Assembly: GCA_017992725.1 (NCBI GenBank)
Contig: JAGOOB010000002.1
Coordinates: 1-39,500 of the forward strand
Length of the DNA stretch: 39,500 nt
Origin: Candidatus Woesebacteria bacterium
GTDB lineage: Bacteria > Patescibacteriota > Microgenomatia > UBA1400 > PJMF01
Direction: 5' to 3'
The position numbers and the translations under genes were made by a program. The notes under the pieces were generated by a model, which ran no database searches, was not told the origin of the DNA, and was given only the letters and a program-made list of their open reading frames with translations. Below are positions 10,131-36,271 of this stretch, in pieces. The stretch's first letter is position 1. Each line of letters opens with the position of its first letter.

Positions 10131-13050
<2,920 letters not shown>

Positions 13051-18828: not shown

Positions 18829-18840
18829 AAGTTCATTTTA

Positions 18841-19308: not shown

Positions 19309-19340
19309 AAATGCTGCTTCTATTTTAAGTCAAACACCAA

Positions 19341-20030
19341 TTAAAGAATAATTTGAGCTAAAATTTGGCGATTTTTTTCAACCAGTTTTGACTTAAATAA
19401 ACCCCGCTCTTCAATCAATACTTTCAACTTATTATCTCCAGCCAAAGTTTGGTAAAAATCTAATTGAGTTTGCAGTATTTCTTTGGCTTCTTTCATATTT
19501 TTTTTACCATTATTGGTAAATGCTGCCAACCAATCAGCACTAATTACGTACTGCCCTAGATTGTAAACTTCTTCACCCCCAGCAATCGTAAAACAAACTT
19601 GATTAGCCAAATGCATGTTGTGTGGCCTGACCATGTGACCTCTTACTCCAGATTTTAATTCTTTCGGATCACTAAAGGGCAAAATACCCACGTATTCGAA
19701 ATTTAATCGATCGGCCAAAGCTGCTACGTGTTGCTGAGCGCTAGCATTCGTTTCATCCCAATCATTAAGCTCAAGATTTTCTTTTAACCAAGCATTCTCT
19801 TCACTAGCAGCAAATTTCAATTTTTTATCTAACTGTTCCTTAGGAAAATTACTATCAATCACTGTCTGTAGAGAGTTGATAACTTCAGAAAAATGCGGCA
19901 AGCCAAATCCAGAACCTAAAAAAGCGAAGCGGCGACCATAATTGAGTTGGACACCTTCATCGCCATCAACTACCACTAAGGGCACAGGCTGAAAGACGGC
20001 AGGCTCAGCTGATTGATTGCTCTTACTCAT
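19341..20030 (-). CDS. Hypothetical protein (229 aa)
   Basis: ATG at 20030 (MSKSNQSAEP) is preferred over the TTG at 20117. The composition looks globular. No family recognised. Confidence 0.5.
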   Translation of the reverse strand: MSKSNQSAEPAVFQPVPLVVVDGDEGVQLNYGRRFAFLGSGFGLPHFSEVINSLQTVIDSNFPKEQLDKKLKFAASEENAWLKENLELNDWDETNASAQQHVAALADRLNFEYVGILPFSDPKELKSGVRGHMVRPHNMHLANQVCFTIAGGEEVYNLGQYVISADWLAAFTNNGKKNMKEAKEILQTQLDFYQTLAGDNKLKVLIEERGLFKSKLVEKNRQILAQIIL

Positions 20031-20053
20031 GAAATTCCTTTTGTTAATTAAAA

Positions 20054-20206
20054 CTACTGAGTCATCGCTTGCACTGCAGCTAAATATTGATTCATCTCTT
20101 TTTCTACCTGTTCCCAATCACCATTAGCTTCACGAATTGCATTAAATAACAGCTCCATGTCGATTAATAATTGGTCGTCAGTAACAATCATTCTTTGTTT
20201 TGCCAT
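20054..20206 (-). CDS. Small ORF (50 aa) below the ORF-track cutoff, the first gene of the array
   Basis: Read by hand: ATG at 20206, TAG at 20056-20054, giving MAKQRMIVTDDQLLIDMELLFNAIREANGDWEQVEKEMNQYLAAVQAMTQ. The composition is helical and acidic. It ends 23 nt before the next gene and is preceded by an extended -10 box. Confidence 0.3.
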   Translation of the reverse strand: MAKQRMIVTDDQLLIDMELLFNAIREANGDWEQVEKEMNQYLAAVQAMTQ

Positions 20207-20214
20207 AGGCCTTT

Positions 20215-20223
20215 ATTATACCA
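20215..20223 (-). promoter_or_regulatory. Extended -10 promoter element (TGGTATAAT)
   Basis: The minus strand reads TGGTATAAT, matching TGnTATAAT. The hexamer ends 8 nt before the ATG at 20206, implying a leaderless or near-leaderless transcript. Confidence 0.3.
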
Positions 20224-20230
20224 TTAGTCG

Positions 20231-20255
20231 AGAAAAAAAGCCAGTGATCGGCTTA
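20231..20255 (-). terminator. Rho-independent terminator after rpsA
   Basis: Hairpin with a 5-bp stem (aagcc/ggctt) and a 7-nt loop at 20238-20254. It is followed by TTTTTTT on the minus strand. An A-run on one side and a T-run on the other make it potentially bidirectional. Confidence 0.5.
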
Positions 20256-20320
20256 ATTTTTTATTGAAACACCAGTTAATAATCGATTAAAATGTTCAGT
20301 TTATTATAAGCAAATTGAAT

Positions 20321-21430
20321 TTATTTATAAGCAATTGGCAAATCTGTCTGCACAATCGATAAACTCATCCGTCGTTGCTCAGGCACTACATTTTCCACGT
20401 TGACCGTCACTTCATCACCCACTTTTAATTCCTTATTGGGATCAAGTTTGGTGGAATGAATTAAACCATCAACACCCTTTTCCACGTTAACAAAAACACC
20501 AAATGGTTCAATGCGAGTTACTTTACCAGTGAAAGTAGTTCCAGCAGCATAACGTTCTGCTAAGGTACTCCAGGGGTCTTCTTCTAATTGTTTAATTGAT
20601 AGATTTAATTTATTAGTTCTCTCATCAATACCAAGCACCTTGACTTTCACTCGATCACCAACCTTATGATAATCTCTGGGATGATTAACTTTTTCCCAAG
20701 AAATTTCGGAGATGTGAACTAAACCCTCGATATAACCAGTACTATCTTTGCCATTTTCGTCCTTGACAGGAACTTCAACCGTGACAAACAAACCAAAGTG
20801 CATCACTCCAGAAACAACTCCTTCATAGATTTCACCTTCTCGGACTGCTTCAATAGCCAAATCTTTTTGAGCCAATTCTTTAGCTTCACTAACGTGTCTT
20901 TCAGAGAAGATTAAACGATTTTTCTCACGATCAACCTCGATCGCTTTAACTTTGAAAGTTTCACCTTTTAAGGAAGGAAGCTTACCCATATACTGGCGAC
21001 CAAACTGGCTAGACGGTACAAAACCACGCACCCCATTAACTAAGACAATCAATCCGCCACGATTTAATTCAACGCCTTTGGCTTCTAAGTCTAAATCTTT
21101 ATCAAGTGCTTCCTCAAAATATTCCCATTTGGCATCGGAAGCGGCACCTTTAAGAGATAATAGTACTTGACCATTGTCGTAATCAGTGGAAATAACAATA
21201 CCCTTAATTTCATCACCAACTTTTAAATCTTCAATAAAATCATTGGCAAATTCAAATTCTTTATCAGCTACATAGGCTTCAGTTTTAGCCCCCAAATCAA
21301 TTACTAAATTTTTCTTATTTTTTTCAACGATAACACCAGTAACCGTGTCTCCTTTTTGGGGAACAACTAAATTATCAGCATTTGCTTTTAATAGTTCCTC
21401 CATTGTCATTTTTTTGGTACTCTTAGCCAT
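20321..21430 (-). CDS. rpsA: 30S ribosomal protein S1 (four S1 domains)
   Basis: ATG at 21430 (MAKSTKKMTMEELL) with an AAAGGAAC RBS; the track start at 21508 is a TTG. Repeated S1/OB motifs are present (G.V.G.V......G..V.L..G..G..H.SE). Confidence 0.9.
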   Translation of the reverse strand: MAKSTKKMTMEELLKANADNLVVPQKGDTVTGVIVEKNKKNLVIDLGAKTEAYVADKEFEFANDFIEDLKVGDEIKGIVISTDYDNGQVLLSLKGAASDAKWEYFEEALDKDLDLEAKGVELNRGGLIVLVNGVRGFVPSSQFGRQYMGKLPSLKGETFKVKAIEVDREKNRLIFSERHVSEAKELAQKDLAIEAVREGEIYEGVVSGVMHFGLFVTVEVPVKDENGKDSTGYIEGLVHISEISWEKVNHPRDYHKVGDRVKVKVLGIDERTNKLNLSIKQLEEDPWSTLAERYAAGTTFTGKVTRIEPFGVFVNVEKGVDGLIHSTKLDPNKELKVGDEVTVNVENVVPEQRRMSLSIVQTDLPIAYK

Positions 21431-22856: not shown

Positions 22857-24959
22857 TTAATAACTGTTTTCTATTTCTTGCAACAACGCCCGTTGTTCAT
22901 CATTTTTTGCTAATGCAAATAAATGATCAAGTAAATACCACTTGGCCTGTGGCTCTAATTCAAGCATATTAATCATCAATTGACGAAATTCAACCAGGCG
23001 ATTTTCTAAAAATAACATATCTAATTGTTCTCTATATAAATAAATATATCTATTGAAATCTCCAACAAAATGCGGCGAAATTTTTTTAAAATTCAAAGAG
23101 AATTGTACTAAATTATTCAAATCGCTTTCGTCTAGAAATAAAGCTCTTTCGGCAAAAAACACATATTGGTCAAACTCATATGACTTCTCATAAAAATAAC
23201 TAGCATTTGACCAATCACCTGCTTTATAAGCCTGCTGACCCAAGGCAAAAACTTGCTTAGCTAATTCTTGTCTTCGCCAATAGCTAATAAAGTAATCATT
23301 AGCAAAAAAATGATATTTCTCGACTAATTGAGTAAACTTCTCTAAAAGAATTTTGGCATCGTTGGTTGACCACTCCTGGAAATTAATTTTTGAAACAAAG
23401 GTAGCGGGATAGGTTTCTGCTAAATCTAAATATAATTGTTTTTTTAATTCTTGATCTATTTCTTCATCTAAATTCAAAAACCGTATAATAAAATCTGAAT
23501 CATAACGATATAAGTGATACAAACTTTGATAAGTAGTGTTGGTATAAACAGTATTATCATAGGCAGACTTTATTGCAGTGTTATAAAAAGGCGTATATTT
23601 GAGCCATTTTTTTGGATTGTTCTTTTGCCAGCTAATTGTCAAAAGATTTCCCACCAAGAAAATTAGACTAAGCAGGAATAAAAAAAGACTATAAATCAAC
23701 CAACTCCGATTACTTTTGTTTTCGATAATCGGTAAATCACGTTGTTCATCTTTTAAAATAAAAGCTAAAAAAATTAAAGTCAATAAAAATATTACAAAAA
23801 AATGCCAATCAAAATCAAACATGGCATTAAATAATGAACTACTGGCTCCTAAAAATAAAAAATTATTCAAAGATTGCTTAGATTTCTTAATCTTTAAATA
23901 ACTCTGGTGATAAAGATAAATAATTAAAAACACAAAGAGTCCACCAGCGATTAAACCTAATTCGGCCAAATTGTGTAAAAAAATGTTATGAGCGTAAGCA
24001 CTTTGTTGTTCAAATGGTAAAGGAAAACGTCTGGCAGCGAATTTAAAAGTATTTAAACCATAACCAACAAGAGGATAATTTTTTATCGTTAAGTATCCTT
24101 GTCGCCAATAAAAAAAGCGACTATTTTCTTTCAAAGATATACAAAAATCCTTATTATAAGTTTTTAAAAAACAATCATTGTTATCTAAAAACGGTAAAGA
24201 CAAGAAAATAAAAATTAAGGAGGCAAATAGAAAAACAAAAACCAGACTCTTGATTAGAGAATAAATAAATGTTTTTTGGCGTAAATTATAAAATTGCTGC
24301 TTGTTTAATAAAAGAATACAAAGAAACTGGGCAAGGACCAACAACACTCCTAAACGAGATAAACTAATCAATACTATTACATATGAGGAAATTAATAAAA
24401 AAATAGTCAAATATGTTGCTATTTTTTTACTAAAAAGATAATTTGTTTTTTTTCTGAATAAGCTCCACCACAACACGGGCAAAATTAAAAGTAAAAAAGC
24501 CACATAATGATTGTGACCATAACTCCGAACTAGGAGATTCATCCCTTGAAAAAAAATCCTAAAATTAGCATTAATGGAAAAAAATATAACCAAAATATTC
24601 AATACCAATGTTAATAGTAGTAAGTATTCGATAAAAGTTTCTACTTTTAAGAGTTTTTTATCTAACTTCAAAAAAAAGATAAATATGCTAAATGCAAACA
24701 GGTAAAACAAATATTTTTCTATGGTGAGTGGGAGATGATGAGAAAAAACACTAGCAATTAGAGACAATAATAAAAATAGAAAAGATAAAAAACTGATTTT
24801 CGAAAATCGTTTGATTTTTAAAAAAGGACTATAAATTACTAAAAAGAGTCCCCAAGCAGGAAATAAATAGAACTTGTAATCCGTCTCCATCAGAAAAAAA
24901 GATAATAAGAAAAGCAAAAAAAAGACTGGGTAAAACAATTTAGTTAATGAATTTCTCAT
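22857..24959 (-). CDS. O-antigen ligase/polymerase-like (Wzy_C) polytopic membrane protein with a C-terminal TPR-like soluble domain
   Basis: ATG at 24959 (MRNSLTKL); the track start at 24965 is a TTG. More than 10 TM helices. The Wzy_C signature is SLSRLGVLLVLAQF...YAHNIFLHNLAELGLIAGGLF. The C-terminal ~250 aa are helical with the TPR-like motif LGQQAYKAGDWSNASYFYEKSYEFD. Confidence 0.7.
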   Translation of the reverse strand: MRNSLTKLFYPVFFLLFLLSFFLMETDYKFYLFPAWGLFLVIYSPFLKIKRFSKISFLSFLFLLLSLIASVFSHHLPLTIEKYLFYLFAFSIFIFFLKLDKKLLKVETFIEYLLLLTLVLNILVIFFSINANFRIFFQGMNLLVRSYGHNHYVAFLLLILPVLWWSLFRKKTNYLFSKKIATYLTIFLLISSYVIVLISLSRLGVLLVLAQFLCILLLNKQQFYNLRQKTFIYSLIKSLVFVFLFASLIFIFLSLPFLDNNDCFLKTYNKDFCISLKENSRFFYWRQGYLTIKNYPLVGYGLNTFKFAARRFPLPFEQQSAYAHNIFLHNLAELGLIAGGLFVFLIIYLYHQSYLKIKKSKQSLNNFLFLGASSSLFNAMFDFDWHFFVIFLLTLIFLAFILKDEQRDLPIIENKSNRSWLIYSLFLFLLSLIFLVGNLLTISWQKNNPKKWLKYTPFYNTAIKSAYDNTVYTNTTYQSLYHLYRYDSDFIIRFLNLDEEIDQELKKQLYLDLAETYPATFVSKINFQEWSTNDAKILLEKFTQLVEKYHFFANDYFISYWRRQELAKQVFALGQQAYKAGDWSNASYFYEKSYEFDQYVFFAERALFLDESDLNNLVQFSLNFKKISPHFVGDFNRYIYLYREQLDMLFLENRLVEFRQLMINMLELEPQAKWYLLDHLFALAKNDEQRALLQEIENSY

Positions 24960-25076
24960 AATCAACTTACTTTAATTCAAATATTTAGTATGGCTGATAA
25001 AAAAAGCGAATGCAAATAGGATTTGGCCATTGAAATAATTGGGGAAATTTCGCGTGATTTAGTTTAGAATTAATTT

Positions 25077-26183
25077 ATGGTTCCTGCGCTTTTTTTTATA
25101 CTTAGCATATTTCTGCTTATAATGAATATCTCGGATCTAACACTGCCTTTTTATTGGGATACTGCTTGGTACTTGATTCCTACTAGCAAATTAATACATG
25201 AAAATGGCTTACTAAGTTTTATTTCATATCCTGGTAGCGATTACCCTCATACTTTTTTGTTACCTTCCCTACTAAGCTTGGCTTTTTATCTTTCAGAACC
25301 ACAAGCGACAATTAGTATTCATCTCATAGGAATTCTTTTATCGATTTTTTTCTTATTTGTTGCCTATAAGCTGGCAAAGATTTTTGTTGACAAAAAATTA
25401 GCAATTTTAATGCTTTTGCTCGTGGTTAGTAACCCAATTTTTCTTAGTCAAACCTTTTTAGTTTACTTTGAAATTATTGGCTTAGCTCTTCGGTTATTAA
25501 CTTTAAAATTTTTTCTTGAAAAAAAACCCAAAGCTTTTTTAATTACTAGTTTAGTAGCTATTTTTACTCGAATTGATAATTTTATTTTTATCAGTTGTAT
25601 GTGTCTAAATATTTTTTTTGACCAAAAGCAAAAGATTCAAGAAAAGATTGCTTTTTTAAAAAAATATTATTTACCTTCTGCAATAGTTACTTTTGCTTGG
25701 TTTTTATCCAATAAATTAATTAATGGCTGGTGGTTTTATTCACCTGAAAGGTATTTTGATGAACATCACCTCCAATCTTTCATCGAATCACTACGAGTTG
25801 TCTTTATTTATCAAGGCAGATGGGCTATTACTGTGGCAACTATTATTGGCTTAATTATCTTAATTTTGCAAAAAAGATGGAAATTAGTTTTTAATAAAAA
25901 ATTGTTAGTATTTTTCTCTGCCACTTTTCCAACTCTAATAATGATTGCCGTTCTTGGTTATGTCTTGAGTAGATATACGTTACCATTAATAATTTTTAAT
26001 TATTATTTTTTGATCATAATCTTAGATAAAATTCAAATTAAGAATAACAAACTTGGAAAAATTGCCTTTATCATTCTTTCTTTGGCAATTATTCAGTTTA
26101 ATCATAAAAACAATTGTTTTGCTGGAAATCGAGAAGACTGTCTACTAGTCAAAAATATAATTAGAGAACAATTAATCAAATGA
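25077..26183 (+). CDS. Putative GT-C fold (PMT_2/ArnT-like) membrane glycosyltransferase
   Basis: 368 aa, polytopic. The first loop, FYWDTAWYLIPTSKLIHENG...YPHTFLLPSLLSLAFYL, followed by ...FFLFVAYKLAKIF...VVSNPIFL, follows the PMT_2 pattern (acidic residue in loop 1, HPP/L motif, helix-rich core). Confidence 0.45.
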   Translation: MVPALFFILSIFLLIMNISDLTLPFYWDTAWYLIPTSKLIHENGLLSFISYPGSDYPHTFLLPSLLSLAFYLSEPQATISIHLIGILLSIFFLFVAYKLAKIFVDKKLAILMLLLVVSNPIFLSQTFLVYFEIIGLALRLLTLKFFLEKKPKAFLITSLVAIFTRIDNFIFISCMCLNIFFDQKQKIQEKIAFLKKYYLPSAIVTFAWFLSNKLINGWWFYSPERYFDEHHLQSFIESLRVVFIYQGRWAITVATIIGLIILILQKRWKLVFNKKLLVFFSATFPTLIMIAVLGYVLSRYTLPLIIFNYYFLIIILDKIQIKNNKLGKIAFIILSLAIIQFNHKNNCFAGNREDCLLVKNIIREQLIK

Positions 26184-26848
26184 CCAATAAAGATTTATTA
26201 ATTATTAAAAAAATGTTTACTCTACCCTGGCCTCTAAAAGATAAACTATTTTGTTTGTTGAGATATATTACTGCCCCTTTTAATGAAATGGAAAAAATGG
26301 TACCCAAAAAAGGAAAAATTTTAGATATTGGCTGTGGACACGGCTTATTTGAATTAATTCTAAAAAGCAAATCTAATAAAAGGGTCATCACTGCTATTGA
26401 TCCAGATTCAAAAAAAATTCAATTAGCTAAAAAAATTGAGGAATTATTTACAAATCTTAAATTTAGCGACTCTACTACAAATCTCACCAATAATAATTAT
26501 CAGATGGATTGCTGTATTTTATCTGATGTGGATTATCTATTAGATGGAAAAGGGAAAACACAAATTCTTCAACAAGCAAAATTTAATTTAAAAAACACTG
26601 GGACCATTATCTTTAAAACTGTAATTAATAATGGTAGCATTGGTTATTATCTTGGGTATTTGCAAGAACTAATTATTGTGTCTTTGCTTAAAAAAACCTA
26701 CAGCAAAAAAAATAATTTTACTTTTTTTACAATCGAAGAATATCTTAAATTATTTAAAGCTAATAACTTGTCTGTAAAAAAACAGAAAAAATTAAAAACT
26801 CTTTTTTATCACCCTCATTATGTGTTTTTACTAAAAAAAATTAAATAA
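26180..26848 (+). CDS. Class I SAM-dependent methyltransferase
   Basis: 222 aa. Motif I is KILDIGCGHGLFELIL. A post-I acidic residue (VITAIDPD) and motif II-like CCILSDVDYLL are present. ATGA overlaps the upstream gene and TAATG overlaps the downstream gene. Confidence 0.75.
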   Translation: MTNKDLLIIKKMFTLPWPLKDKLFCLLRYITAPFNEMEKMVPKKGKILDIGCGHGLFELILKSKSNKRVITAIDPDSKKIQLAKKIEELFTNLKFSDSTTNLTNNNYQMDCCILSDVDYLLDGKGKTQILQQAKFNLKNTGTIIFKTVINNGSIGYYLGYLQELIIVSLLKKTYSKKNNFTFFTIEEYLKLFKANNLSVKKQKKLKTLFYHPHYVFLLKKIK

Positions 26849-28458
26849 TGAAATATTTAACTAAAAAAAATTTGTCTTTTATTTTAGTTGTTCTAATTTT
26901 TTTAAGTGGTTTTTACTTACGCCTCACAAGATATAACTATTTCAATTATTTAAATGGTGATGAAGGAAATCATTTTCTTTTATTTGATAATTTTTTGCGT
27001 TTTAAAAAATTTTGGCTGGTTGGAGAGGGTAGTAGTCTTGGCGATTATGATCAAAATTTATACTTTCACAATTTGCCATATAGTCTTTATTTTGAATTGA
27101 TCATTTTCATTGTGGCCAATCAATCACCCTTAATTTACATGTTTCTTTATATGTTGATAAATTTGGCCTTGATTTATTTACTCTGGCAAACAACTAAAAA
27201 TTTCTTTGATGAAAAAATTGCTTTAATAGCTATATTTTTGGCAAGTTTTTCTAGATACTTGATCGGTATCAGTGTTTTCGCATCACAACCAACCAACGCT
27301 TTAATATTTGAAGCTGTCGGCTTATACCTACTGAGCTTGTTTAACAAGAAAAAAGACAAGAAATTCTTGATATTTAGCTTAATTTCATTTTTATTTGCTC
27401 TTCACATGTACCCACCAATGTATCTGTATTTACCCGTTAAAATTATCTTTCTTTTAATTTTTTTTCACAAAGAAATTGTCAAAAATAAAAAAATACTAAT
27501 CTATGCCCTACTAATTATCGTTATCAGTTACCTCCCCATGATCATTAATGAGATCAACTACTTTAACCAGGACTGCTCTAACATTTGGAATATTAGAAGT
27601 TTAATCAATAATGGAGGTTTTAATAACAATAACGAATCAGTCATTGTGAACGACAAAACACAACTCAACCAGTTCTTAGAAAGAATTATATCCTTGACTA
27701 GAGATGCCTTTAATAACATCAATGATAATTTTTATATTTACTGGTTATTCTTAATACCGATTTTATTCAGCGCTGTTGTTTTGAATCAAGATAGAAATAA
27801 GAAACTCCTAACGTATTATTTTCTACTTTCAATATTGACACCGATAATCATCTTAGGAGTATTCAAAATTGATAGATTGGATTATATTCGTGGCTTCAAT
27901 TCCTTTTATCTTATTTTAGTATTAGCTGTTGGCATTGGAAATTTAAGAAAAATTTCTAAAAACTTGTATTTTATAGGCGTATCTTTAACTGTGATTTTAA
28001 TTTTAGCTGGCACACCCATTAATGAGCCCATAGAACCAGAACTCAATCACATTAATTATCTTGAGAGAAACTTAATAATTGAGTTAATCAAAAACGATAT
28101 AGATCAAAACTCTCTTGCCCTCAATGAAATTGATATTAAGGTAATTAACCATAATTATCCCAACAACAGTGGCAATTGGGACAGTTCAATTTATTGGTAC
28201 TTATTACAAAAAGATAGTCCAATTCAATTAGTTGATTGCTCATATCCCTTTTTGACTCCAGAGAAAATTAATAAACAAACAACTACAACGTTTTATATTT
28301 GTGAATACAAAAATGATCAAGCAAACATTCAAGATTGTTTTAATAATATCTATCAAATTTACGATATTTCTCCAGAAGAAAAAACCCAGGTTTTGTTTCG
28401 GAATCGGAGACTAATTTTAATCAAATTTAATCATAATTTAATCCAGGATGAACAATAA
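26848..28458 (+). CDS. Putative GT-C fold (ArnT/PMT-like) membrane glycosyltransferase with a C-terminal extracytoplasmic domain
   Basis: 536 aa. TM1 is followed by YLNGDEGNHFLL (the acidic DE motif of GT-C loop 1). About 11 TM helices, with a soluble C-terminal ~130 aa. Confidence 0.5.
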   Translation: MKYLTKKNLSFILVVLIFLSGFYLRLTRYNYFNYLNGDEGNHFLLFDNFLRFKKFWLVGEGSSLGDYDQNLYFHNLPYSLYFELIIFIVANQSPLIYMFLYMLINLALIYLLWQTTKNFFDEKIALIAIFLASFSRYLIGISVFASQPTNALIFEAVGLYLLSLFNKKKDKKFLIFSLISFLFALHMYPPMYLYLPVKIIFLLIFFHKEIVKNKKILIYALLIIVISYLPMIINEINYFNQDCSNIWNIRSLINNGGFNNNNESVIVNDKTQLNQFLERIISLTRDAFNNINDNFYIYWLFLIPILFSAVVLNQDRNKKLLTYYFLLSILTPIIILGVFKIDRLDYIRGFNSFYLILVLAVGIGNLRKISKNLYFIGVSLTVILILAGTPINEPIEPELNHINYLERNLIIELIKNDIDQNSLALNEIDIKVINHNYPNNSGNWDSSIYWYLLQKDSPIQLVDCSYPFLTPEKINKQTTTTFYICEYKNDQANIQDCFNNIYQIYDISPEEKTQVLFRNRRLILIKFNHNLIQDEQ

Positions 28459-29794
28459 TTGAGTCATGAGTTTTTGCTAACACCGTATTTTTTTTCTCAG
28501 AAAAAATCAAGAAAAAAGTCAGTTGAGCAAAATAAGCAAACAGATATTTAATGGGATGTTTTTTTAGATGATATAAAGTTGACTTTCGAGATCGAATTGC
28601 TAAATTATTTGTTTGGGCAAATTGAACAATTGTTGGCCAAATTGGGTAAAAAATATGTAAATGTTGTTCAGAATCAAGACCACTACAATTAATGCCGTTA
28701 TTTTTTAGATAATTAAATTGTTGACTCAGCTCTAGTTTAACCTCATCCATATTAATTTTTGAAAAAAACATTTTGATCAAAAACTTTGGCAAAGAAAAAA
28801 ACTGTCCGTTTTTATCGACTAGTGAAGGCACGTTGGTTATTGGACTAATGGGTTGACCACATAATAAATTGAAATGTAAATTTAAGTCTAAATTTCTCTT
28901 TTTACTCAATAAATTTAAATTGCTTAATGATTTTTGGCTAACTAAGTTAGCCAAAATCGATATTCTTACTACCGACGAAGCTTGGGCTTGGGCCAAAATT
29001 ACTTTATCTGCGTGATCATTTAAGCCATAATCATCGGCGTTGATTTTAAAAGAACTAATTATTCTTTCTCCAAAATTTTTATCACGAAAAACAAAACTCG
29101 AAACAATTCTTATCAAGTCAAGCCAACATAAATAATATCTTCTTATTGCAGAATATCTACTTGTTCTGATTTCACCAGTAATAGTTGCTATTTCCTTTAA
29201 TTTAAAGGTTTTAGTTCTCATCATTCTCAGTAACAGTTCAGTATCAAAAAACTCATATTTAGTAAAAGAAGAATAGATAATTTTTTTTAGCAATAAGGAG
29301 TTTTTGATGATTTTATTACCATGAGTATCGGTTCCTGGATAATGAAAAATATATCTGGTTATTAACTGAAATAATTTAGTTCTCATTCTGTGGCGAAATG
29401 GTCGCTGATCAGAACCTTTGATTAAAGATTTTGACGCCACAATTAACTGATATTTAGTAATTGCTTTTAAACCTTTTTTCAAAAAATTTAAATTAAAAAA
29501 ATCAATATCTAAAAGTATTAAGTACTTGCCCCTAGCAAGCAAGAGACCATTTTTAATAGCAAGACCATAAGAAGCTTTGGGCAAATGATAAAACTTAATT
29601 TTTTTATTTTTTTTTGCCAAATCTTCAATTATTTTCAGAGAACAATCGTTACTGCCGTTTTCAATTAAAATAATCTCGTAATTTTGAATTTTGCTTTTTT
29701 CTAAAAAATTATTAAAAATTCTGATTTGGTTTGCTAATATTGCTTCTTCGTTATGTATGGGAAATATAAAACTAAATTCATAATCAAAATGCAT
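28427..29794 (-). CDS. Fusion protein: GT2 (Dpm1/ArnC/GtrB-like polyprenyl-phosphate sugar synthase type) plus a YdjC/ChbG-family carbohydrate deacetylase
   Basis: N-terminal half: FSFIFPIHNEEAIL..., YEIILIENGSNDCS, YGLAIKNGLLLARGKYLILLDIDF (GT-A fold motifs). C-terminal half: FKINADDYGLN, LNLHFNLLCG, LDSEQHLHIFYPIW (the three YdjC motifs). One continuous 455-aa ORF. Confidence 0.8.
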   Translation of the reverse strand: MHFDYEFSFIFPIHNEEAILANQIRIFNNFLEKSKIQNYEIILIENGSNDCSLKIIEDLAKKNKKIKFYHLPKASYGLAIKNGLLLARGKYLILLDIDFFNLNFLKKGLKAITKYQLIVASKSLIKGSDQRPFRHRMRTKLFQLITRYIFHYPGTDTHGNKIIKNSLLLKKIIYSSFTKYEFFDTELLLRMMRTKTFKLKEIATITGEIRTSRYSAIRRYYLCWLDLIRIVSSFVFRDKNFGERIISSFKINADDYGLNDHADKVILAQAQASSVVRISILANLVSQKSLSNLNLLSKKRNLDLNLHFNLLCGQPISPITNVPSLVDKNGQFFSLPKFLIKMFFSKINMDEVKLELSQQFNYLKNNGINCSGLDSEQHLHIFYPIWPTIVQFAQTNNLAIRSRKSTLYHLKKHPIKYLFAYFAQLTFFLIFSEKKNTVLAKTHDSIIVHPGLNYD

Positions 29795-29849: not shown

Positions 29850-30974
29850 ATGAATAAATTAAAAAATAAAAAAGTAGCTATCATTCATGATTCTTTTACC
29901 CAATTTGGCGGTGCTGAAAGGGTTTTGTTTTATCTGATCAAAATGTTCCCCAAAGCTGACATTTATACTTCTCTGATCAGTGATAAATATCAAACGGAAG
30001 TCAAAAAGCGAAGTAGGGGTAAACTATATTTTTCAAAACTAAGTAAAATTCCCTTTGTTGTCAATCATTCAAGCTTCTTTAAACCCTACTTTTTCCATTA
30101 TTATTGGGAAAGGTTAAATCTAGATAAATATGATTTGGTCATTTCTTCTTCACATTCTTTCTGTGCTCATTTTGTCAAGGTAAAAAATAAACATTTATGT
30201 TATATGTACACTACTCCTCGATTTCTTCATGATGAGTTTAATGAAGTCTCTTGGCTAAAAACACCAATTATTAATAAAATTTTTAAACCTTATTTTAATT
30301 TGCTAATAAAAAAAAATAAAAAGAAAATTCGTCAAATCGATACTCTAATTGCTGATTCAGTCAATGTACAAAAAAGAATAAAACAATACTATGGCGCTAC
30401 AGCAAAAGTCATTTATCCCCCAGTCAAAACTTTTAACAATAGAAAAAATAGTGAAAAATTAAATTTGAATACTAAAAATTATTTATTTTTTTCCAGATTA
30501 GTTAAACAAAAAGGCATTGAGTTAGTAATTAGTACGTTTAATGAAAATCAAAAACCATTGTTGGTTGTTGGTACTAGTGGTCAAGAAAAAAAATGGCGTC
30601 GATTAGCAAACAATAATATTCAATTTTTAGGCTTTGTTACAGATAAAGCCATCGAAAATGTCCTAAAGCACAGTAAAGCATTAATCTATGCTTCCATAGA
30701 TGAAGATTTTGGGATGATTCCCGTTGAGGTTATGAGTTATGGTTTACCAATTATTGCCTACAAAGACGGAGGAGTGAAAGAAACCGTAGTAGATAATAAA
30801 ACCGGTATTTTCTTCAATAAATATGACAAAAAATCTCTGAATCAAGCTATTGAAAAATTTGAAAAAACAAAATTTAACAAAACTCATTGCATCAAACAAG
30901 CAGAAAAATTTAATGAACAAATATTTGAGAAAAACTTGTTAAAAGAAGTTAAACAATTATTTGATGACCAATAA
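29850..30974 (+). CDS. Glycosyltransferase family 4 (GT-B, group 1)
   Basis: 374 aa. KVAIIHDSFTQFGGAERV is at the N-terminus. The EX7E region is ASIDEDFGMIPVEVMSYGLPIIAYKDGGVKETV. Confidence 0.85.
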   Translation: MNKLKNKKVAIIHDSFTQFGGAERVLFYLIKMFPKADIYTSLISDKYQTEVKKRSRGKLYFSKLSKIPFVVNHSSFFKPYFFHYYWERLNLDKYDLVISSSHSFCAHFVKVKNKHLCYMYTTPRFLHDEFNEVSWLKTPIINKIFKPYFNLLIKKNKKKIRQIDTLIADSVNVQKRIKQYYGATAKVIYPPVKTFNNRKNSEKLNLNTKNYLFFSRLVKQKGIELVISTFNENQKPLLVVGTSGQEKKWRRLANNNIQFLGFVTDKAIENVLKHSKALIYASIDEDFGMIPVEVMSYGLPIIAYKDGGVKETVVDNKTGIFFNKYDKKSLNQAIEKFEKTKFNKTHCIKQAEKFNEQIFEKNLLKEVKQLFDDQ

Positions 30975-31016
30975 AACCTCATTTAATTTTCACTCGTTAA
31001 TGGCATAATAGCGAAT

Positions 31017-31766
31017 ATGGTAGTTCGACTAGCAAATTGCCAATTTATGATTGGTCAATTCGAAAAAGTGGTAAATTTTCTCGCAAAAAGAATAAATAAA
31101 AAAGCTAATTCGCAAATGGTATTACCTTGTTCTTTATATGATTTAGCTGTAAAAAATGAGCAAAAGCATTTGGCATTTTACCAAAACATTGACTATTGCA
31201 CTAGCGATAGCATGCTCATTACCAATTATTTCCGTCACAAATATCAAAAAAAGATTGACAGAGTTTACGGTCCAGATTTAATGTTGGCAATATTTGATTA
31301 TCAGCAAAAAAACAAAACCAACTTAAAACACTACTTACTCTGTCCAAATAACATCACTAAAAAAAAGATTAGCGCATTATTTAATAAAAAATACCCAAAC
31401 CAAAAAATTTTTTACGACTATTTACCAAAAAAAATCAGCCAACAACAAGAATTACTGCATTATCAAAAAATTCTTGATCATAAACCAGATTTTATTTGGA
31501 TAGGAATTGGTTCTCCAAAACAACTAGCAATTGCCGATTGGCTAAAAAACCACTCACAGGGTGTCAAAATTTTTTGTGTTGGCGCAGCTTTTGATTTTAT
31601 TAGTGGTCAAAAAAAACAAGCACCGCTATGGATGCAAAAAAATAGTTTAGAATGGTTGTTCAGACTATTAAATGAACCAAAACGTTTGTGGAAAAGATAT
31701 TTAGTTATTATTCCCAAATATTTATTAGGACAAATATTAAGCAATAAAAAAAATAACAAAACATGA
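31017..31766 (+). CDS. WecB/TagA/CpsF family glycosyltransferase (GT26)
   Basis: 249 aa. FIWIGIGSPKQLAIADWL, VGAAFDFISGQKKQAP and LEWLFRLLNEPKRLWKRYL are the family hallmarks. Confidence 0.85.
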   Translation: MVVRLANCQFMIGQFEKVVNFLAKRINKKANSQMVLPCSLYDLAVKNEQKHLAFYQNIDYCTSDSMLITNYFRHKYQKKIDRVYGPDLMLAIFDYQQKNKTNLKHYLLCPNNITKKKISALFNKKYPNQKIFYDYLPKKISQQQELLHYQKILDHKPDFIWIGIGSPKQLAIADWLKNHSQGVKIFCVGAAFDFISGQKKQAPLWMQKNSLEWLFRLLNEPKRLWKRYLVIIPKYLLGQILSNKKNNKT

Positions 31767-32752
31767 AATTAAATAAAAATCAAACAACAGTTTTAATCAC
31801 TGGGGCTGGTGGCTTTATTGGCGGTCATCTGGTCAATTATCTATTTAGACTGGGCTATAAAAAAATTAGAGCAGTTGATATTAAACCTTTAAAAAATTGG
31901 CAACAGGTCAATAAAAACGCTGACAATTTGGTATGTGATCTCAGAAAATTAAGCAATTGTCATAAAGTCAGCCAAAATATTAATGAAATTTATAACTTAG
32001 CTTCAGATATGGGTGGGATGGGCTTTATTGAAAATAATAAAGCCCTCTGCATGCTAAATGTCCTAATTAATACCAATATGCTCATCGCGGCCAAAGAGGC
32101 CAAAGTCAACCGCTATTTTTTTTCTTCATCAGCTTGTGTTTACCCACTGGAAAAACAACAAAGTAGCAAAACCAATGGTTTAAAAGAACAAGACGCTTAT
32201 CCAGCCAATCCAGAAGATGGCTACGGTTGGGAAAAATTATTTTCTGAGCGGATGTGTCGTCATTTTATGGAAGATTTTGGACTAGAAACTAGAGTTGCTC
32301 GTTTTCACAATGTTTATGGACCTTATAGTGCTTTCCAAGGCGGTAGAGAAAAAGCCCCAGCAGCCTTGATTCGCAAAACCATAGAAGCCAAAAATTCAGG
32401 AAATAAAGAAATAGAAATTTGGGGTGATGGTCAACAATCAAGAACTTTTATGTACATAGATGATTGCGTGAAGGGCATCGATCTAATTATGCATAGTGCC
32501 ATTAGAGAACCAATTAATTTAGGGACCAGTCAATTGGTAACAATTAATCAATTGGTTTCATTGATCGAAAAAATTGCCAATGTTCGACTAAAAAGAAAAT
32601 ATAAACTCGACGCACCCAGAGGTGTTAGAGGTCGTAGTAGCGATAACACTCTAATCAAAAATTATTTAAATTGGGAACCCTGTATTCCTCTTGAGGAAGG
32701 TTTGAAAAAAAATTATCAGTGGATTGAGCAACAAATGATTAAAAAATGTTAA
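31763..32752 (+). CDS. GDP-mannose 3,5-epimerase (GME) orthologue, SDR superfamily
   Basis: 329 aa. The Rossmann motif is ITGAGGFIGGHL. NLASDMGGMGFIENN, FFSSSACVYP, YGWEKLFSE, ARFHNVYGPYSAFQGGREKAPAA, WGDGQQSRTFMYIDDCV and GVRGRSSDNTLIK align block-for-block with plant GME (NLAADMGGMGFIQSN, FYASSACIYP, YGLEKLATE, GRFHNIYGPFGTWKGGREKAPAA, GVRGRNSDNNLIK). Confidence 0.85.
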   Translation: MKLNKNQTTVLITGAGGFIGGHLVNYLFRLGYKKIRAVDIKPLKNWQQVNKNADNLVCDLRKLSNCHKVSQNINEIYNLASDMGGMGFIENNKALCMLNVLINTNMLIAAKEAKVNRYFFSSSACVYPLEKQQSSKTNGLKEQDAYPANPEDGYGWEKLFSERMCRHFMEDFGLETRVARFHNVYGPYSAFQGGREKAPAALIRKTIEAKNSGNKEIEIWGDGQQSRTFMYIDDCVKGIDLIMHSAIREPINLGTSQLVTINQLVSLIEKIANVRLKRKYKLDAPRGVRGRSSDNTLIKNYLNWEPCIPLEEGLKKNYQWIEQQMIKKC

Positions 32753-33984
32753 AAAAAAAGAAATTACTGTATCTTAGTCAATGCTTTCCTCTGCCTCTGG
32801 ATGGTGGTGGTCGCATCAAAACTTTTAATACTTTGCAAACTCTTTCAAGTCAATTTGATATTTTTGCCGTTTTTGTTTCTGAAAGAAAAGCTAGTCAAAA
32901 AGAACTAGAGAAATTCAGCAAACTGGGTATTAAAGTAAAAATATTTAAAACCAAATTGATGGCGGAAAGCATTAAAGAAGATTACTTAAAGCTGGCTTGG
33001 AATTATTTGCAGCTTCGACCACATTTTGTTTATCAATATCGATATAAACCTAGTTTTACTTGGATCAAAGACAAGATTAAAGAGTGGCAACCTGACATTA
33101 TTCATGTTGACCACATTAACTCGGCGCAATTTCTGCCCAAAAAAAAGTGGTTAAAGAAAAACTGTTTAACAATGCCCATTTTGATTCTAGAAAATCATAA
33201 TTTAGATCACGTGCTATTTTTTACTCGTTTTAGAGAAACAAAGAAATTAATTAGAAAAATTTATTTATTACTAGAGGGTAGTCTCAATTTGCTTTATGGA
33301 GAAATCAATTATCGAAGGTTTGATCACATTTTCTCAATATCTGCATCAGAAACCAGTTACCTTAGTCAAAAATGCAAAAGTGTTTCCACTCAGCCATTAG
33401 TTTATCCACTGAAAGCAGTTAAACCTAGTAAACATAAAATTTATGACATTTTGTTTATTGCTTATCTAGAATGGCCACCAAATGAAGTGGCAGTACGTTG
33501 GTTCAGCGAAAAAATTTTACCCTTAATCAATCGGGAGATGCCTGAAATTAAATTTCATGTAGTGGGCAATAAAAATCCTCGATTAGCCGATTTGAAACAT
33601 AATAAAAATATCATTTTTTATGGACATCAAAAAAACATTGATCAGTTTTTGGCTAAAAGCAAAGTTTTTATTTTACCTTTCAAAACCGGAGCTGGTGTAC
33701 GGCTCAAATCTTTAACTGCCCTACAAAATGGTATCCCCATTGTATCGACCAAATTGGGAGTTGATGGTTTGAAATTAATAAATAAAAAACATTATTTACT
33801 CGCCGAAACAGAAAAAGAATTTGCTGAAAAAGTGATTGAATTACTAAAAAATGAAAAATTACGAAAAAAAATTAGTTCTGCCCAAAAGCAATATTTTCTA
33901 GAAAATCATTCTGCAAAGAATAATAAACAATTTCTAGCAAGCTACTTAAAAATCTTAAATAATATGGATCAAAAAATTAATTAA
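32746..33984 (+). CDS. Glycosyltransferase family 4 (GT-B, group 1)
   Basis: 412 aa. LYLSQCFPLPLDGGGRIKTF is at the N-terminus. The C-terminal FKTGAGVRLKSLTALQNGIPIVSTKLGVDGL is a GT4 donor-binding region. It overlaps the GME stop by 7 nt. Confidence 0.8.
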   Translation: MLKKKKLLYLSQCFPLPLDGGGRIKTFNTLQTLSSQFDIFAVFVSERKASQKELEKFSKLGIKVKIFKTKLMAESIKEDYLKLAWNYLQLRPHFVYQYRYKPSFTWIKDKIKEWQPDIIHVDHINSAQFLPKKKWLKKNCLTMPILILENHNLDHVLFFTRFRETKKLIRKIYLLLEGSLNLLYGEINYRRFDHIFSISASETSYLSQKCKSVSTQPLVYPLKAVKPSKHKIYDILFIAYLEWPPNEVAVRWFSEKILPLINREMPEIKFHVVGNKNPRLADLKHNKNIIFYGHQKNIDQFLAKSKVFILPFKTGAGVRLKSLTALQNGIPIVSTKLGVDGLKLINKKHYLLAETEKEFAEKVIELLKNEKLRKKISSAQKQYFLENHSAKNNKQFLASYLKILNNMDQKIN

Positions 33985-33990
33985 TTATTA

Positions 33991-34851
33991 TTAATCCACA
34001 ATTTCAATAATCTGAGCATCTTCAATAGCATAATCTTTAAACTGTAGCCAAATTTTTGATCCCACCTTCAAAACAGTATTATTGATGTAAAAATCTCTGT
34101 CCAAAGTATTGAATGCTTTGACTTTTAAAACTATGTCTAAATCGCTATAATCTGGATTAAATGTTTTAATCATTTCGCCTCTAATATCTGAAAATGTGTA
34201 GAAATTAGTTACCGCTTTTTTCACTTCGATTATTTCTGCAACGACGTTACCAGACGAATCATAAGCTTTATCCCCCTCTTTTATCTGATCGGCTATCGGC
34301 TTGTACACTCCATTTTTAACTACTCTGATTGTTTTAAAAAAATAATCAATTTCATCAGCTCCGGTTTGAACAATAATGCCTCTTAACTGATGTTGGGGGA
34401 AATTAATAATTAATGAAGAACCAACTGAAAGGGGTTTAAATTCATATAAGTACTGATTTTTATTTTTATCAAAATCGACTCTCAATTTTAAATCGACAAA
34501 AATCATTCTGTATGGGCCCCCCTGATCATAATTATCAATATTTACAACTTCAGCCACTGTTTGACCAAACGAGTCTTTTGCTTGATCGCCGACTGCTAAA
34601 TCATTAGCATACCAATATCTTGGCGGTGCACCACTGCCATACCACCAATCAACATTCTCGACTGCAATTCTCACATTGGTCCAAACTACACGACGTTGTA
34701 ACCGGTTGTAAATAAAAAACAGCAGAACTAAAAATAACAAAAAAAATACCAAATAATCAAAAAAGTTTAATTTACTAATAAAAACCTTCATATTCTGTAT
34801 AATACGGCTTATGAGAGATTTCTTTTTAAACAAAGATTTTCGTTTTTTCAT
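33991..34851 (-). CDS. Membrane-anchored protein with two tandem copies of a ~90-aa beta-rich module (possibly DUF4330-like)
   Basis: ATG at 34851 (MKKRKSLF); an alternative ATG lies at 34791 (MKVFISKL). The TM is FFDYLVFFLLFLVLLFFIY. Internal repeat: VGDQAKDSFGQTVAEVVNID...LKLRVDF...VGSSLIINF matches EGDKAYDSSGNVVAEIIEVK...IVLKVKAF...VGSKIWLQF. Confidence 0.4.
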   Translation of the reverse strand: MKKRKSLFKKKSLISRIIQNMKVFISKLNFFDYLVFFLLFLVLLFFIYNRLQRRVVWTNVRIAVENVDWWYGSGAPPRYWYANDLAVGDQAKDSFGQTVAEVVNIDNYDQGGPYRMIFVDLKLRVDFDKNKNQYLYEFKPLSVGSSLIINFPQHQLRGIIVQTGADEIDYFFKTIRVVKNGVYKPIADQIKEGDKAYDSSGNVVAEIIEVKKAVTNFYTFSDIRGEMIKTFNPDYSDLDIVLKVKAFNTLDRDFYINNTVLKVGSKIWLQFKDYAIEDAQIIEIVD

Positions 34852-36271
34852 GATGAATTCAATTTTTTTGTTCAGTTTACTGTTGGTAAACTCCAACAAA
34901 ATTTTATTATTATTGGCTATGGCGTATTTAATCATACTGATTAAAAAAACGCAAAATTACCGTTTTAGCCTGTTTGTCATGTTTTTTAATCTTTTGCCTT
35001 TTGTTGTTGGTAGAAATATTATTGAAAACACTTTAATTAGCCATCGAGAAATTTATGGTTTTTCAATATTTGATGTTAAATATTTCTTTCCTATTTATTT
35101 GTCAGACTTATTTCTGCTTTTGATTTATCAAAATTATTTTTCAGAAAAATTTTTTGCAAAAAAAAGTAAAAATTTAACCAAAAGTAAGGAAATAGGAAAA
35201 GAATTTAAAATCCCTTTGATCAGTTTAACCTTATTTTTCTGTTTAGTACTGATCAGAAGTCTCAGTCACGAATTATCATCTCTGTTGTTTTTTGGTTCAT
35301 TAATCATCTTAAAATATATTCTGATTTTTGCTCTTGCTATTATTTTTGATCACAAAGAAAAAACAAAAATATTCCCTCAGTTACTGGCTAGCAATCTTTT
35401 TTTTCAATCAATCATTATTTTTGTTGAACAATTAAAAGGAGGAAATATTGGCAGATTTATTGAAAATAGCCTGCCTGGGTTAGAAATGGGAACTTTAGCC
35501 GCTGAATCAGCCAGCATGCTCAGAGCCGATGGTACTTTTAACGAGCCAAATGTTACTGCAATCTATTTATTAATCAATGTTGTTGTCTTGAGCAATATCG
35601 CTACCAAAATCAAAAATAAAAAAATCAGCTACTTTTATTATCTAATTATTCTTATCACTCTTCTCGCTATAATTTTTACCGGAAGCCGTAGTCTTTATGC
35701 TTTATCATTAATTTACTTAACCTTTTTCTTCTTCAACAATAAAAAATTATTAACAACAATATTTGCGAAACTGTGGACTAATAATTTGTTAAAAATAGGG
35801 ATTATTAGTGTAATGGTTTTGATATTACCTTACTTTTTTAGTCGCATGCACACCATAAAAAACGTCTTTACTGATACCGGTAGTTTAACTTATCGGTCCG
35901 AACTCAATAAAACCGTTTTATCAATGTCTTATAAAGAACTATTGGGGTATGGCCTAGACCTCACGCCTTATTATCTGGCCAAGAACTTTAAAACTGTCGA
36001 TAGTTTACCCGTTATTTTTGATCAAGCTCCAGCCCACAATATTTTTGTACAGATTTTTGCTGAAACCGGTATTTTTGCCTTCATATTTTTTATCATTTTT
36101 GTTTATTACTCCCTTAAAATTGGACTGCAAAATAAAAATAATTATTTCAGTTTAGCTGCTCTTTTTTACTTATTAGCCGCTCAATTTCATCCAGTATTTA
36201 CCAATCATTACCAACTGACTGGATTTTTCTTTCTTTATTTAGGCATGGGGATTCATGAAAAACAAAGTTAA
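34811..36271 (+). CDS. O-antigen ligase/polymerase-like (Wzy_C) polytopic membrane protein (start uncertain: 34811, 34850 or 34919)
   Basis: Up to 486 aa, with more than 10 TM helices. The Wzy_C signature is TGSRSLYALSLIYL...PAHNIFVQIFAETGIFAFIFF. The 5' end of the ORF overlaps the divergent gene's 5' end. Confidence 0.7.
   Translation: MRDFFLNKDFRFFMMNSIFLFSLLLVNSNKILLLLAMAYLIILIKKTQNYRFSLFVMFFNLLPFVVGRNIIENTLISHREIYGFSIFDVKYFFPIYLSDLFLLLIYQNYFSEKFFAKKSKNLTKSKEIGKEFKIPLISLTLFFCLVLIRSLSHELSSLLFFGSLIILKYILIFALAIIFDHKEKTKIFPQLLASNLFFQSIIIFVEQLKGGNIGRFIENSLPGLEMGTLAAESASMLRADGTFNEPNVTAIYLLINVVVLSNIATKIKNKKISYFYYLIILITLLAIIFTGSRSLYALSLIYLTFFFFNNKKLLTTIFAKLWTNNLLKIGIISVMVLILPYFFSRMHTIKNVFTDTGSLTYRSELNKTVLSMSYKELLGYGLDLTPYYLAKNFKTVDSLPVIFDQAPAHNIFVQIFAETGIFAFIFFIIFVYYSLKIGLQNKNNYFSLAALFYLLAAQFHPVFTNHYQLTGFFFLYLGMGIHEKQS

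Follow-up and report, generated by a model that had tools for sequence, protein, structure and literature searches.

A GT2-YdjC fusion protein and its conserved neighbours as a candidate module for lipid-carrier amino-sugar glycosylation in a Patescibacteria bacterium

The general three-component scheme of extracytoplasmic glycosylation combines a polyprenyl-phosphate-sugar synthase with a GT-C glycosyltransferase (PMC11127046, PMC7389260). Amino sugars are handled by a few described systems of this kind. NaxD, a member of the YdjC superfamily, converts undecaprenyl-phosphate N-acetylgalactosamine (GalNAc) into undecaprenyl-phosphate galactosamine (GalN) (PMC11279074), and the presence of glucosamine (GlcN) on Bordetella lipid A requires LgmABC (PMC4993483). 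In mycobacteria, PpgS and Rv3779 bring GalN onto arabinogalactan; the source gives the deacetylase and flippase of this pathway as 'as yet unidentified' and depicts flipping before deacetylation (PMC9671496). Here we analyse a locus in the first 39,500 nucleotides of contig JAGOOB010000002.1, assigned to a Candidatus Woesebacteria bacterium; this whole 39.5-kb stretch is called the window. It encodes a protein in which a family 2 glycosyltransferase (GT2) domain and a YdjC-type deacetylase domain are joined, next to two predicted GT-C membrane proteins and a methyltransferase. We read the four genes as an extracytoplasmic glycosylation module of the three-component type in which the sugar is deacetylated on its lipid carrier, and give this reading a probability of roughly 0.6.

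The fusion gene spans 28427–29794 on the minus strand (455 residues). On the plus strand, open reading frames (ORFs) encode a GT-C-fold membrane protein of 368 residues at 25077–26183, a class I S-adenosylmethionine (SAM)-dependent methyltransferase of 222 residues at 26180–26848 and a PMT_2 GT-C protein of 536 residues at 26848–28458. These coordinates and strands agree with an initial annotation of the stretch, and the six motifs quoted there (PIHNEE, IENGSNDCS, LILLDIDF, NADDYG, LHFNL and DSEQHLH) are all present in the 455-residue translation. The same annotation had set the methyltransferase gene between the two GT-C genes with ATGA and TAATG overlaps. Direct reading of the sequence confirms this arrangement. 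ATGA at 26180–26183 is shared by the 368-residue gene and the methyltransferase gene, TAATG at 26846–26850 joins the methyltransferase gene to the 536-residue gene, and the latter converges on the fusion gene with an overlap of 32 nt (28427–28458). Scans for promoters and terminators gave the same signal as shuffled sequence. The G+C content of the glycan cluster is about 27–30%. Close homologues of the module proteins are labelled 'Patescibacteria group bacterium' or 'Candidatus Pacebacteria', and the source is therefore taken to be a Candidate Phyla Radiation (CPR)/Patescibacteria bacterium. Lipid A and lipopolysaccharide are not expected in this phylum, and there are no lipid A genes in the 39.5-kb window.

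The 455-residue protein is indeed a two-domain GT2-YdjC protein, with both halves above their Pfam cut-offs. Glycos_transf_2 matches residues 8–164 with 64.1 bits (cut-off 23.3), and YdjC (PF04794) matches residues 251–408 with 88.1 bits (cut-off 29.7). The GT2 half (residues 1–247) is encoded at 29054–29794 and the YdjC half (residues 248–455 and the stop codon) at 28427–29053, both on the minus strand. The architecture recurs in homologues. In a protein collection clustered at 90% identity, the same two domains are found in 22 clusters of 433–471 residues that are 30–86% identical to the query. A search of 1.84 billion representatives of a 50%-identity library, made without a word index, gave 87 proteins at E ≤ 1e-30, and about 50 of the matches listed cover both halves, down to about 28% identity. 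The 22 clusters and some 50 representatives with the same architecture rule against an assembly or frameshift artefact. Each half also has separate relatives in the representative library, namely GT2 proteins of about 230–250 residues and 'short' YdjC proteins of 190–220 residues. In a pattern-based, non-exhaustive scan of 185,579 species-representative genomes, the full-length fusion was found only at loci L008 to L011 of our survey and a split form at L014; two of these genomes bear the name Candidatus Pacebacteria. At L014:7989–9336, a GT2 of 244 residues and a short YdjC of 212 residues are separate ORFs with 26 nt in common, either as a natural split form or through a frameshift; this metagenome-assembled genome is labelled 'uncultured Gammaproteobacteria', which looks doubtful from its gene content. 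Public annotation of the fusion homologues reads only 'ChbG/HpnK family deacetylase' or 'AglD', and literature searches found no published description of a GT2-YdjC fusion.

The AlphaFold2 model of the fusion is confident along the whole chain (predicted local distance difference test, pLDDT, 91.1; predicted template modelling score, pTM, 0.90; alignment of 21 sequences). The 455-residue chain has no transmembrane (TM)-like segment. Two helices stand out. An Arg-rich amphipathic helix of residues 216–236 follows the GT-A domain, with a hydrophobic moment (muH) of 0.41–0.54 in most family members, and an aromatic hydrophobic helix of residues 414–431 is inserted in the YdjC half. Both are presumably membrane-interface elements. 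YdjC domains also occur in other fusions (P0026, P0030 and P0024), with Formyl_trans_N in a 558-residue protein of Elusimicrobia, with radical SAM and B12-binding domains in a 766-residue protein and with a GT2 in the reverse order, YdjC first, in a 532-residue protein.

The GT2 half has a GT-A fold. In a Foldseek search with the fusion model, the best 24 PDB matches are all GtrB, ArnC or DPMS, with E values of 1e-10 to 5e-9. They comprise Synechocystis GtrB, Salmonella ArnC and Pyrococcus DPMS, and polymer-acting or soluble GT2s rank lower. Together with the Pfam match, these 24 structures bear out the earlier assignment to the Dpm1/ArnC/GtrB type. By its predicted fold, the GT2 half is a member of the polyprenyl-phosphate glycosyltransferase structural class. 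Residues P12, N15, E16, N46, G47, S48, D50, D98, D156 and E186 are invariant. The window holds no second GT2 paralogue that we could find.

In the YdjC half, residues D254, D255, G257, H307, N309, S375, R401 and H449 are invariant when fusions are aligned with stand-alone YdjC proteins, and H378 (at least 90%) and P450 are nearly so. The Foldseek matches of this half are EF3048 (2i5i, E = 6e-9), ChbG (7vi8, rmsd 2.7–3.0 over 163 columns) and CmCBDA, and the DSEQHLH motif of the fusion is aligned on DSHHHVH of ChbG. We take D255, H307 and H378 to be the counterparts of the ChbG metal ligands D11, H61 and H125. The Pfam score and these invariant residues uphold the view that the C-terminal half is of YdjC/ChbG type with its catalytic Asp and His kept. 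The hallmark motifs are all there; the domain itself is not full-length but a short, C-terminally shortened form. The Pfam model is matched over profile positions 4–156 of 266 only, and the chain ends five residues after the HPG motif (H449-P450-G451). This short form is family-wide and also present as a stand-alone protein. Against the NCBIfam equivalog models the half stays under the cut-offs, with 77.2 bits for ChbG (NF002559; cut-off 227) and 44.5 bits for HpnK (TIGR03473; cut-off 232.6). From the conserved catalytic residues and the precedent of NaxD we infer that the YdjC half is a metal-dependent de-N-acetylase.

A shortened domain raises the question of whether it has lost its activity. 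The YdjC half might be catalytically dead and repurposed for membrane docking or oligomerisation, in place of the TM helices of GtrB-type proteins, in which case the sugar would be delivered N-acetylated. The match to little more than half of the profile (positions 4–156) and the hydrophobic helix inserted at 414–431 would suit such a role. However, D254, D255, H307, H378 and H449 are kept in 21 fusions, the most distant at 29% identity, and are common to active ChbG-type proteins, and the existence of short YdjC proteins that belong to the same subfamily and stand alone argues for an autonomous enzymatic unit. A dead domain is therefore regarded as highly improbable, and the deacetylase is assumed to be active in what follows.

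The two membrane proteins were initially described as two PMT_2/ArnT-like GT-C proteins. For the 536-residue protein this holds, with PMT_2 matched at 31.7 bits (Pfam cut-off 26.1) and PF13231 found in 11 of 11 homologues. The family is polytopic and ends in a conserved extracytoplasmic domain of about 130 residues. Its first extracytoplasmic loop, after TM1, carries the motif G-D-E-G-N, in which G37, D38, G40 and N41 are invariant and E39 nearly so. For the 368-residue protein the GT-C fold is supported, whereas membership of PMT_2 is not found by hidden Markov model (HMM); it has no Pfam or NCBIfam match even at E = 1, and its relatives are annotated 'hypothetical protein' (Candidatus Pacebacteria). 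Profiles of both families gave no usable match against PDB sequences. The identity of the 368-residue protein was resolved by structure prediction and Foldseek, where that profile search had failed. Its AlphaFold2 model (pLDDT 89.6, pTM 0.90) has 29 best PDB matches that are all GT-C enzymes, with TMq 0.62–0.64 for the best. They include ALG12, ALG9, ArnT, Pmt4, PglB, AftB, STT3, ALG3, ALG6, PIG-M, AftD, PimE and EmbB. In addition, the profile of the 368-residue family aligns over residues 56–178 to the PMT_2 core of the 536-residue family (hhalign E = 8.6e-5), with YPHT/YFHN and SQ..FE as motif pairs. In the 368-residue family the motif P-F/Y-W-D after TM1 is invariant, as are P24, W27, D28, H58, H82, R248, R299 and D354. 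The protein lacks an extracytoplasmic domain, and longer relatives of 478–503 residues have a C-terminal extension. Judged by predicted fold and profile-profile comparison, the 368-residue protein is a minimal GT-C.

The 222-residue protein matches two Pfam models above their cut-offs of 27, Methyltransf_31 with 35.9 bits and Methyltransf_23 with 34.8 bits, which confirms it as a class I SAM methyltransferase. It has no TM segment. Against PDB sequences it gave SAM-motif matches only, all with E > 0.02, and no characterised relative. The weak similarities to UbiG and BamL were rejected as a sign of a lipid substrate or of N-methylation. Methylation of the amine specifically is pure conjecture. 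Homologues of the methyltransferase adjoin the fusion in L006 (56% identity), L008 and L009 (32%) and L014 (30%). In L004 a methyltransferase domain fused to GtrA is 26% identical to the methyltransferase of the window over 171 residues (E = 2e-13). Further domain fusions link the same functions. The GT2 subfamily of the fusion is joined to class I methyltransferases in P0116 and P0135 (about 468 residues) and to membrane domains of about 450–500 residues in P0122, P0133 and P0138 (700–760 residues in total; one weakly DUF6057-like).

A different modifying enzyme is present at three loci. A NodU/CmcH-type carbamoyltransferase of 566–567 residues, with copies 67–69% identical, and a 47-residue DUF5989 protein lie near the fusion at L001:7812–9669, L002:6151–8006 and L003:16586–16729 and 18774–20477. 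The carbamoyltransferase never occurs together with a methyltransferase homologue, which six other loci have; the sample is small and phylogeny may account for the pattern. It may be an alternative tailoring enzyme.

The neighbourhoods of 12 independent fusion loci were compared. A tblastn search with the 368-residue, 536-residue and methyltransferase proteins gave no match in the first five related loci; for the membrane proteins the divergence is too great for this method, and profile HMMs were needed for the neighbours. In L006, where the fusion is 58% identical to that of the window, the methyltransferase gene and then a 536-family orthologue (E = 1e-223) converge on the fusion, without a 368-family gene. 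L008 and L009, both from Candidatus Pacebacteria (fusions 38–39% identical), have the fusion, 368-family and 536-family genes in one direction and the methyltransferase gene next to them on the opposite strand. L010 (38%) has the fusion, 368-family and 536-family genes, and in L011 (36%) the 368-family/536-family pair follows about 4 kb downstream of the fusion. A 536-family homologue (E = 7e-16) lies two genes away in L007 (about 40%). In L014 (40%) the split GT2 and YdjC genes converge on a methyltransferase homologue, and otherwise only unclassified polytopic and Wzy_C proteins stand beside them. Other PMT or PMT_2 proteins are adjacent or second neighbours in L001, L003 and L004 (46%, 38% and 30%). 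The L004 genes form an operon of the GtrA-methyltransferase fusion, a PMT_2-like protein and the GT2-YdjC fusion, with a free GtrA gene nearby. L002 (39%), together with its sister contig, is alone in lacking a nearby GT-C and has a weakly GDSL-like protein instead; this 333-residue neighbour, tried as a 368-family GT-C, was rejected as weakly GDSL-lipase-like.

Taken by family, the 368-family gene is directly upstream of the 536-family gene in L008, L009, L010 and L011, 536-family orthologues or homologues are beside the fusion in L006 to L011, and GT-C genes adjoin or lie near the fusion in 10 of the 12 loci. The proposed co-conservation is thus borne out. The fusion, the 368-family and 536-family proteins and the methyltransferase recur together, reordered, in Pacebacteria whose fusions are 38–39% identical to that of the window. 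A gene set that is kept while order and orientation change is the usual signature of functional coupling, and we infer from this pattern that the four genes are functionally linked. The protein fusions point the same way, with the GT2 subfamily joined to methyltransferases or membrane domains and the methyltransferase of the module joined to GtrA.

The same survey bears on another possibility, that the fusion makes a terminal cationic amino-glycolipid that adjusts membrane charge, comparable to HpnI/HpnK, Clostridioides difficile HexSDF or Pseudomonas aeruginosa GpgSDF, and does not supply a donor to any GT-C. Operons of synthase, deacetylase and in some cases flippase for amino-glycolipids are established (PMC10128005, PMC12713373), one fusion locus has no GT-C nearby, and among NCBIfam models HpnK gives the YdjC half its second-best match. 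That match, though, reaches 44.5 bits of the 232.6 required, and the known systems use a GT4-type (GpgS) or a predicted monogalactosyldiacylglycerol-synthase-type (HexS) enzyme, with deacetylases not reported to be of YdjC type (PMC10128005, PMC12713373). The fold class of the GT2 half is that of GtrB, ArnC and DPMS, and among the GT-C genes that adjoin or lie close to the fusion in 10 of the 12 loci are conserved orthologous pairs. A terminal amino-glycolipid seems to us quite improbable, and the four genes are better read as a glycosylation module that feeds GT-C enzymes.

Two further neighbours were recorded in the survey. A GalE-like short-chain dehydrogenase/reductase (SDR) gene is directly beside the fusion in five loci (L007:5137–6060, L010:7027–7986, L011:7061–7990, L002:2691–3635 and L003:8989–9918), co-directional and overlapping in three. 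The proteins score 127–204 bits against TIGR01179 (175–204 bits in four of the five loci; cut-off 262) and give a hint of a 4-epimer sugar. SDR typing was rejected as a way to choose between N-acetylglucosamine and GalNAc, since GalE is the top match but below cut-off and in a near tie with dTDP-glucose 4,6-dehydratase. L002 and L003 also have a PIG-L-family deacetylase.

The module would work as follows. The GT2 half would dock at the cytoplasmic face of the membrane through the amphipathic helices and, as its fold and family suggest, transfer N-acetylhexosamine (HexNAc) from UDP-HexNAc to polyprenyl phosphate; UDP-HexNAc is the predicted donor because the deacetylase needs such a substrate. 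Since the domains are fused, the product would be passed directly to the short YdjC domain. This domain, with D255, H307 and H378 as ligands, would strip the N-acetyl group and leave polyprenyl-phosphate hexosamine with a free amine, in line with its catalytic residues and with NaxD. The cytoplasmic SAM methyltransferase might then tailor the lipid-linked sugar at N or O, which is conjecture. We know of no characterised precedent for methyl tailoring of a sugar on a polyprenyl-monophosphate carrier. These steps are assigned to the cytoplasmic face because neither the fusion nor the methyltransferase has TM segments. A flippase would carry the lipid-linked sugar outward, perhaps of GtrA type as in one relative (L004). 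Outside, the paired 368-residue and 536-residue GT-Cs would transfer the amino sugar, as fold and synteny suggest; they may work as one complex or each on a different acceptor site. The initial annotation had proposed that a lipid-carrier HexNAc is made and de-N-acetylated on the cytoplasmic face and then used by GT-Cs outside, and this proposal is supported, on evidence that is computational throughout.

The acceptor would be extracytoplasmic, most plausibly a wall-linked glycopolymer that the neighbouring WecG/TagA, GT4 and Wzy_C genes build; a surface protein is the other candidate. The glycopolymer is favoured because of the neighbours, which are a WecG/TagA-family transferase, two GT4s (family 4 glycosyltransferases), an SDR and two Wzy_C proteins in the window, and Bac_transf in relatives. 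On one side, divergent from the 368-residue gene, a 702-residue Wzy_C membrane protein resembling O-antigen ligases and polymerases is encoded at 22857–24965 on the minus strand (Pfam Wzy_C, 56.7 bits). On the other side, glycopolymer assembly genes identified by Pfam run divergently from the fusion over 29850–33984. These plus-strand genes are a GT4 (29850–30974), the WecG/TagA-family transferase (31017–31766), an SDR epimerase/dehydratase (31763–32752) and a second GT4 (32746–33984). A second Wzy_C-family membrane protein of 486 residues follows at 34811–36271 on the plus strand (54.1 bits). Wzy_C proteins flank the fusion also in L004, L006, L007, L011 and L014, and WecG homologues are near it in L002, L003, L006, L007, L009 and L014. 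The best NCBIfam match of the adjacent GT4 is GlcN-PG synthase, with 51.9 bits against a cut-off of 480; it was rejected as support for an amino-glycolipid because it is far under the cut-off.

Several points weigh against the proposed pathway. The GT2 half is without the TM helices that anchor GtrB and ArnC at the C-terminus, a position that the YdjC domain occupies, and it falls far under the NCBIfam equivalog cut-offs for ArnC (27 vs 529) and PgfS (43 vs 500). The YdjC half lacks the C-terminal tail of about 40–50 residues seen in canonical members, and its activity is assumed. The 39.5-kb window has no flippase gene or GtrA-like ORF, and in L002 and its 205-kb sister contig no GT-C can be recognised up to 10 kb from the fusion. 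The module also lies inside a general glycan-assembly cluster, and part of the co-localisation could be generic.

The glycan cluster also accommodates another reading, in which the GT2 half is a repeat-unit enzyme. It would add HexNAc to a growing undecaprenyl-diphosphate-linked oligosaccharide, on the way to the glycopolymer of the neighbouring WecG, GT4 and Wzy genes; the YdjC half would deacetylate this residue in the cytoplasm, and the GT-Cs would be unrelated ligases, polymerases or side-chain transferases with another donor. Most loci have a Wzy-type glycan cluster (WecG/TagA, GT4s, Bac_transf and Wzy_C) around the module, the sequence-level matches of the GT2 half concern mainly the N-terminal 100 nucleotide-binding residues and include the soluble GalT1, and the absent TM helices are those typical of GtrB and ArnC. 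At the structural level, however, the 24 best matches are exclusively polyprenyl-phosphate glycosyltransferases. GT-Cs need a polyprenyl-phosphate-sugar donor, and the window has no other candidate synthase; the GT-C pair tracks the fusion despite reordered genes, and the methyltransferase of the module is fused to GtrA in one lineage. We consider a repeat-unit enzyme unlikely. All three alternatives are disfavoured by the predicted GT2 fold class, by the invariance of the catalytic residues and by the synteny with GT-C genes, which leaves the module with on-carrier deacetylation as the preferred reading. A more far-reaching version of it can be imagined, in which the conserved methyltransferase acts at the membrane on the newly deacetylated lipid-linked hexosamine, CPR bacteria build N-methylated or carbamoylated polyprenyl-phosphate amino-sugar donors and the 368-residue and 536-residue proteins form an obligate heteromeric transferase that puts a cationic sugar on the wall. 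This version is speculative, and we are rather doubtful of it.

Other features of the window are as follows. A DUF4330 gene at 33991–34935 on the minus strand overlaps divergently by about 125 nt with the second Wzy_C ORF when the latter is read from its first possible start, and the true start of this Wzy_C gene is probably further downstream. The end of the same gene is overlapped by 36255–39371, which encodes a 1038-residue protein with PQQ-like beta-propeller repeats and DUF5060; this protein may be secreted or at the cell surface and tied to the glycan cluster. Type IV pilus genes PilO and PilN are found at 2858–4101, MurJ at 4156–5844 and a TrwB/VirD4-like coupling ATPase at 13469–15808. 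The coupling ATPase and genes for DUF192, GH3 and S1 proteins are syntenic with L001. The minus strand carries 5S rRNA (9905–10020), 23S rRNA (10135–13047) and tRNA-Ala (13230–13304). There is no 16S rRNA before the next protein gene (13469), and 16S is apparently unlinked from the 23S-5S pair. A spurious 149-residue ORF (12588–13037) falls within the 23S gene.

A large part of bacterial diversity belongs to Patescibacteria, whose envelope chemistry is essentially uncharacterised. The module predicts a free, possibly methylated, amino sugar on the surfaces of some of them, and the positive charge could influence how they attach to hosts, how phages recognise them and how well they resist cationic compounds. 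The fusion would be natural evidence that synthesis of polyprenyl-phosphate HexNAc and its de-N-acetylation are coupled on the cytoplasmic face. Such coupling bears on systems in which the deacetylase is still unknown, for example the mycobacterial GalN pathway (PMC9671496). The 368-residue protein would define a minimal GT-C family of Pacebacteria and relatives that Pfam misses. As a soluble, TM-free enzyme, the GT2-YdjC protein could be a convenient biocatalyst for polyprenyl-phosphate-hexosamine donors.

Among known systems, Francisella FlmF2/NaxD/FlmK (NaxD also in Acinetobacter) and Bordetella LgmA/LgmC/LgmB follow the same logic of a GtrB/ArnC-type GT2, a deacetylase and an ArnT-like GT-C. 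FlmK and LgmB are the GT-Cs of these systems. The present locus differs from them in several ways. The GT2 and a short YdjC are in one TM-free polypeptide; two paired GT-Cs, one of them the minimal 368-residue protein, and a conserved methyltransferase are present; and the host belongs to Patescibacteria, where lipid A is not expected, so that the acceptor must differ. The comparison with NaxD and LgmC is by description. With PpgS/Rv3779, these two systems are closer precedents than HpnI/HpnK and ArnC/ArnD/ArnT, which had initially been named as analogies. ArnC/ArnD/ArnT shares the order of synthase, deacylase and GT-C, and its ArnC is one of the best structural matches to the GT2 half. ArnD, which removes a formyl group, is outside the YdjC family. 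HpnI/HpnK likewise has a YdjC-family deacetylase after a GT2; unlike the module, it has a hopanoid acceptor and no GT-C afterwards.

The GalN pathway of mycobacteria and corynebacteria (the epimerase Rv3634c, PpgS/Rv3631 with Rv3632, and the GT-C Rv3779) is the likeness that does not involve lipid A, with polyprenyl-phosphate GalNAc made by a GT2 and a GT-C that acts on a wall polysaccharide (PMC9671496). A GalE-like epimerase is beside the GT2 there, as in several fusion loci; the deacetylase of the present module is fused to the synthase and, by topology, predicted to be cytoplasmic. The GtrB/GtrA/Gtr* and CsbB/GtcA/YfhO systems resemble the module in their synthase and GT-C, and in the GtrA-type flippase of L004. 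Classical three-component systems transfer an unmodified hexose with no deacetylase or methyltransferase step, and the window differs also in having no flippase gene. In the pentofuranose systems of Kelly et al. 2024, ORF15 joins PPPRS and PRP domains, again a synthase and the next modifying enzyme in one protein (PMC11127046). The pathway logic is thus already known from NaxD, LgmABC and PpgS/Rv3779 and holds no surprise in principle. What is new here is the covalent, TM-free fusion of a predicted synthase and deacetylase, the short YdjC form, a minimal GT-C invisible to Pfam and paired with a PMT_2 protein, the conserved methyltransferase and the setting in Patescibacteria.

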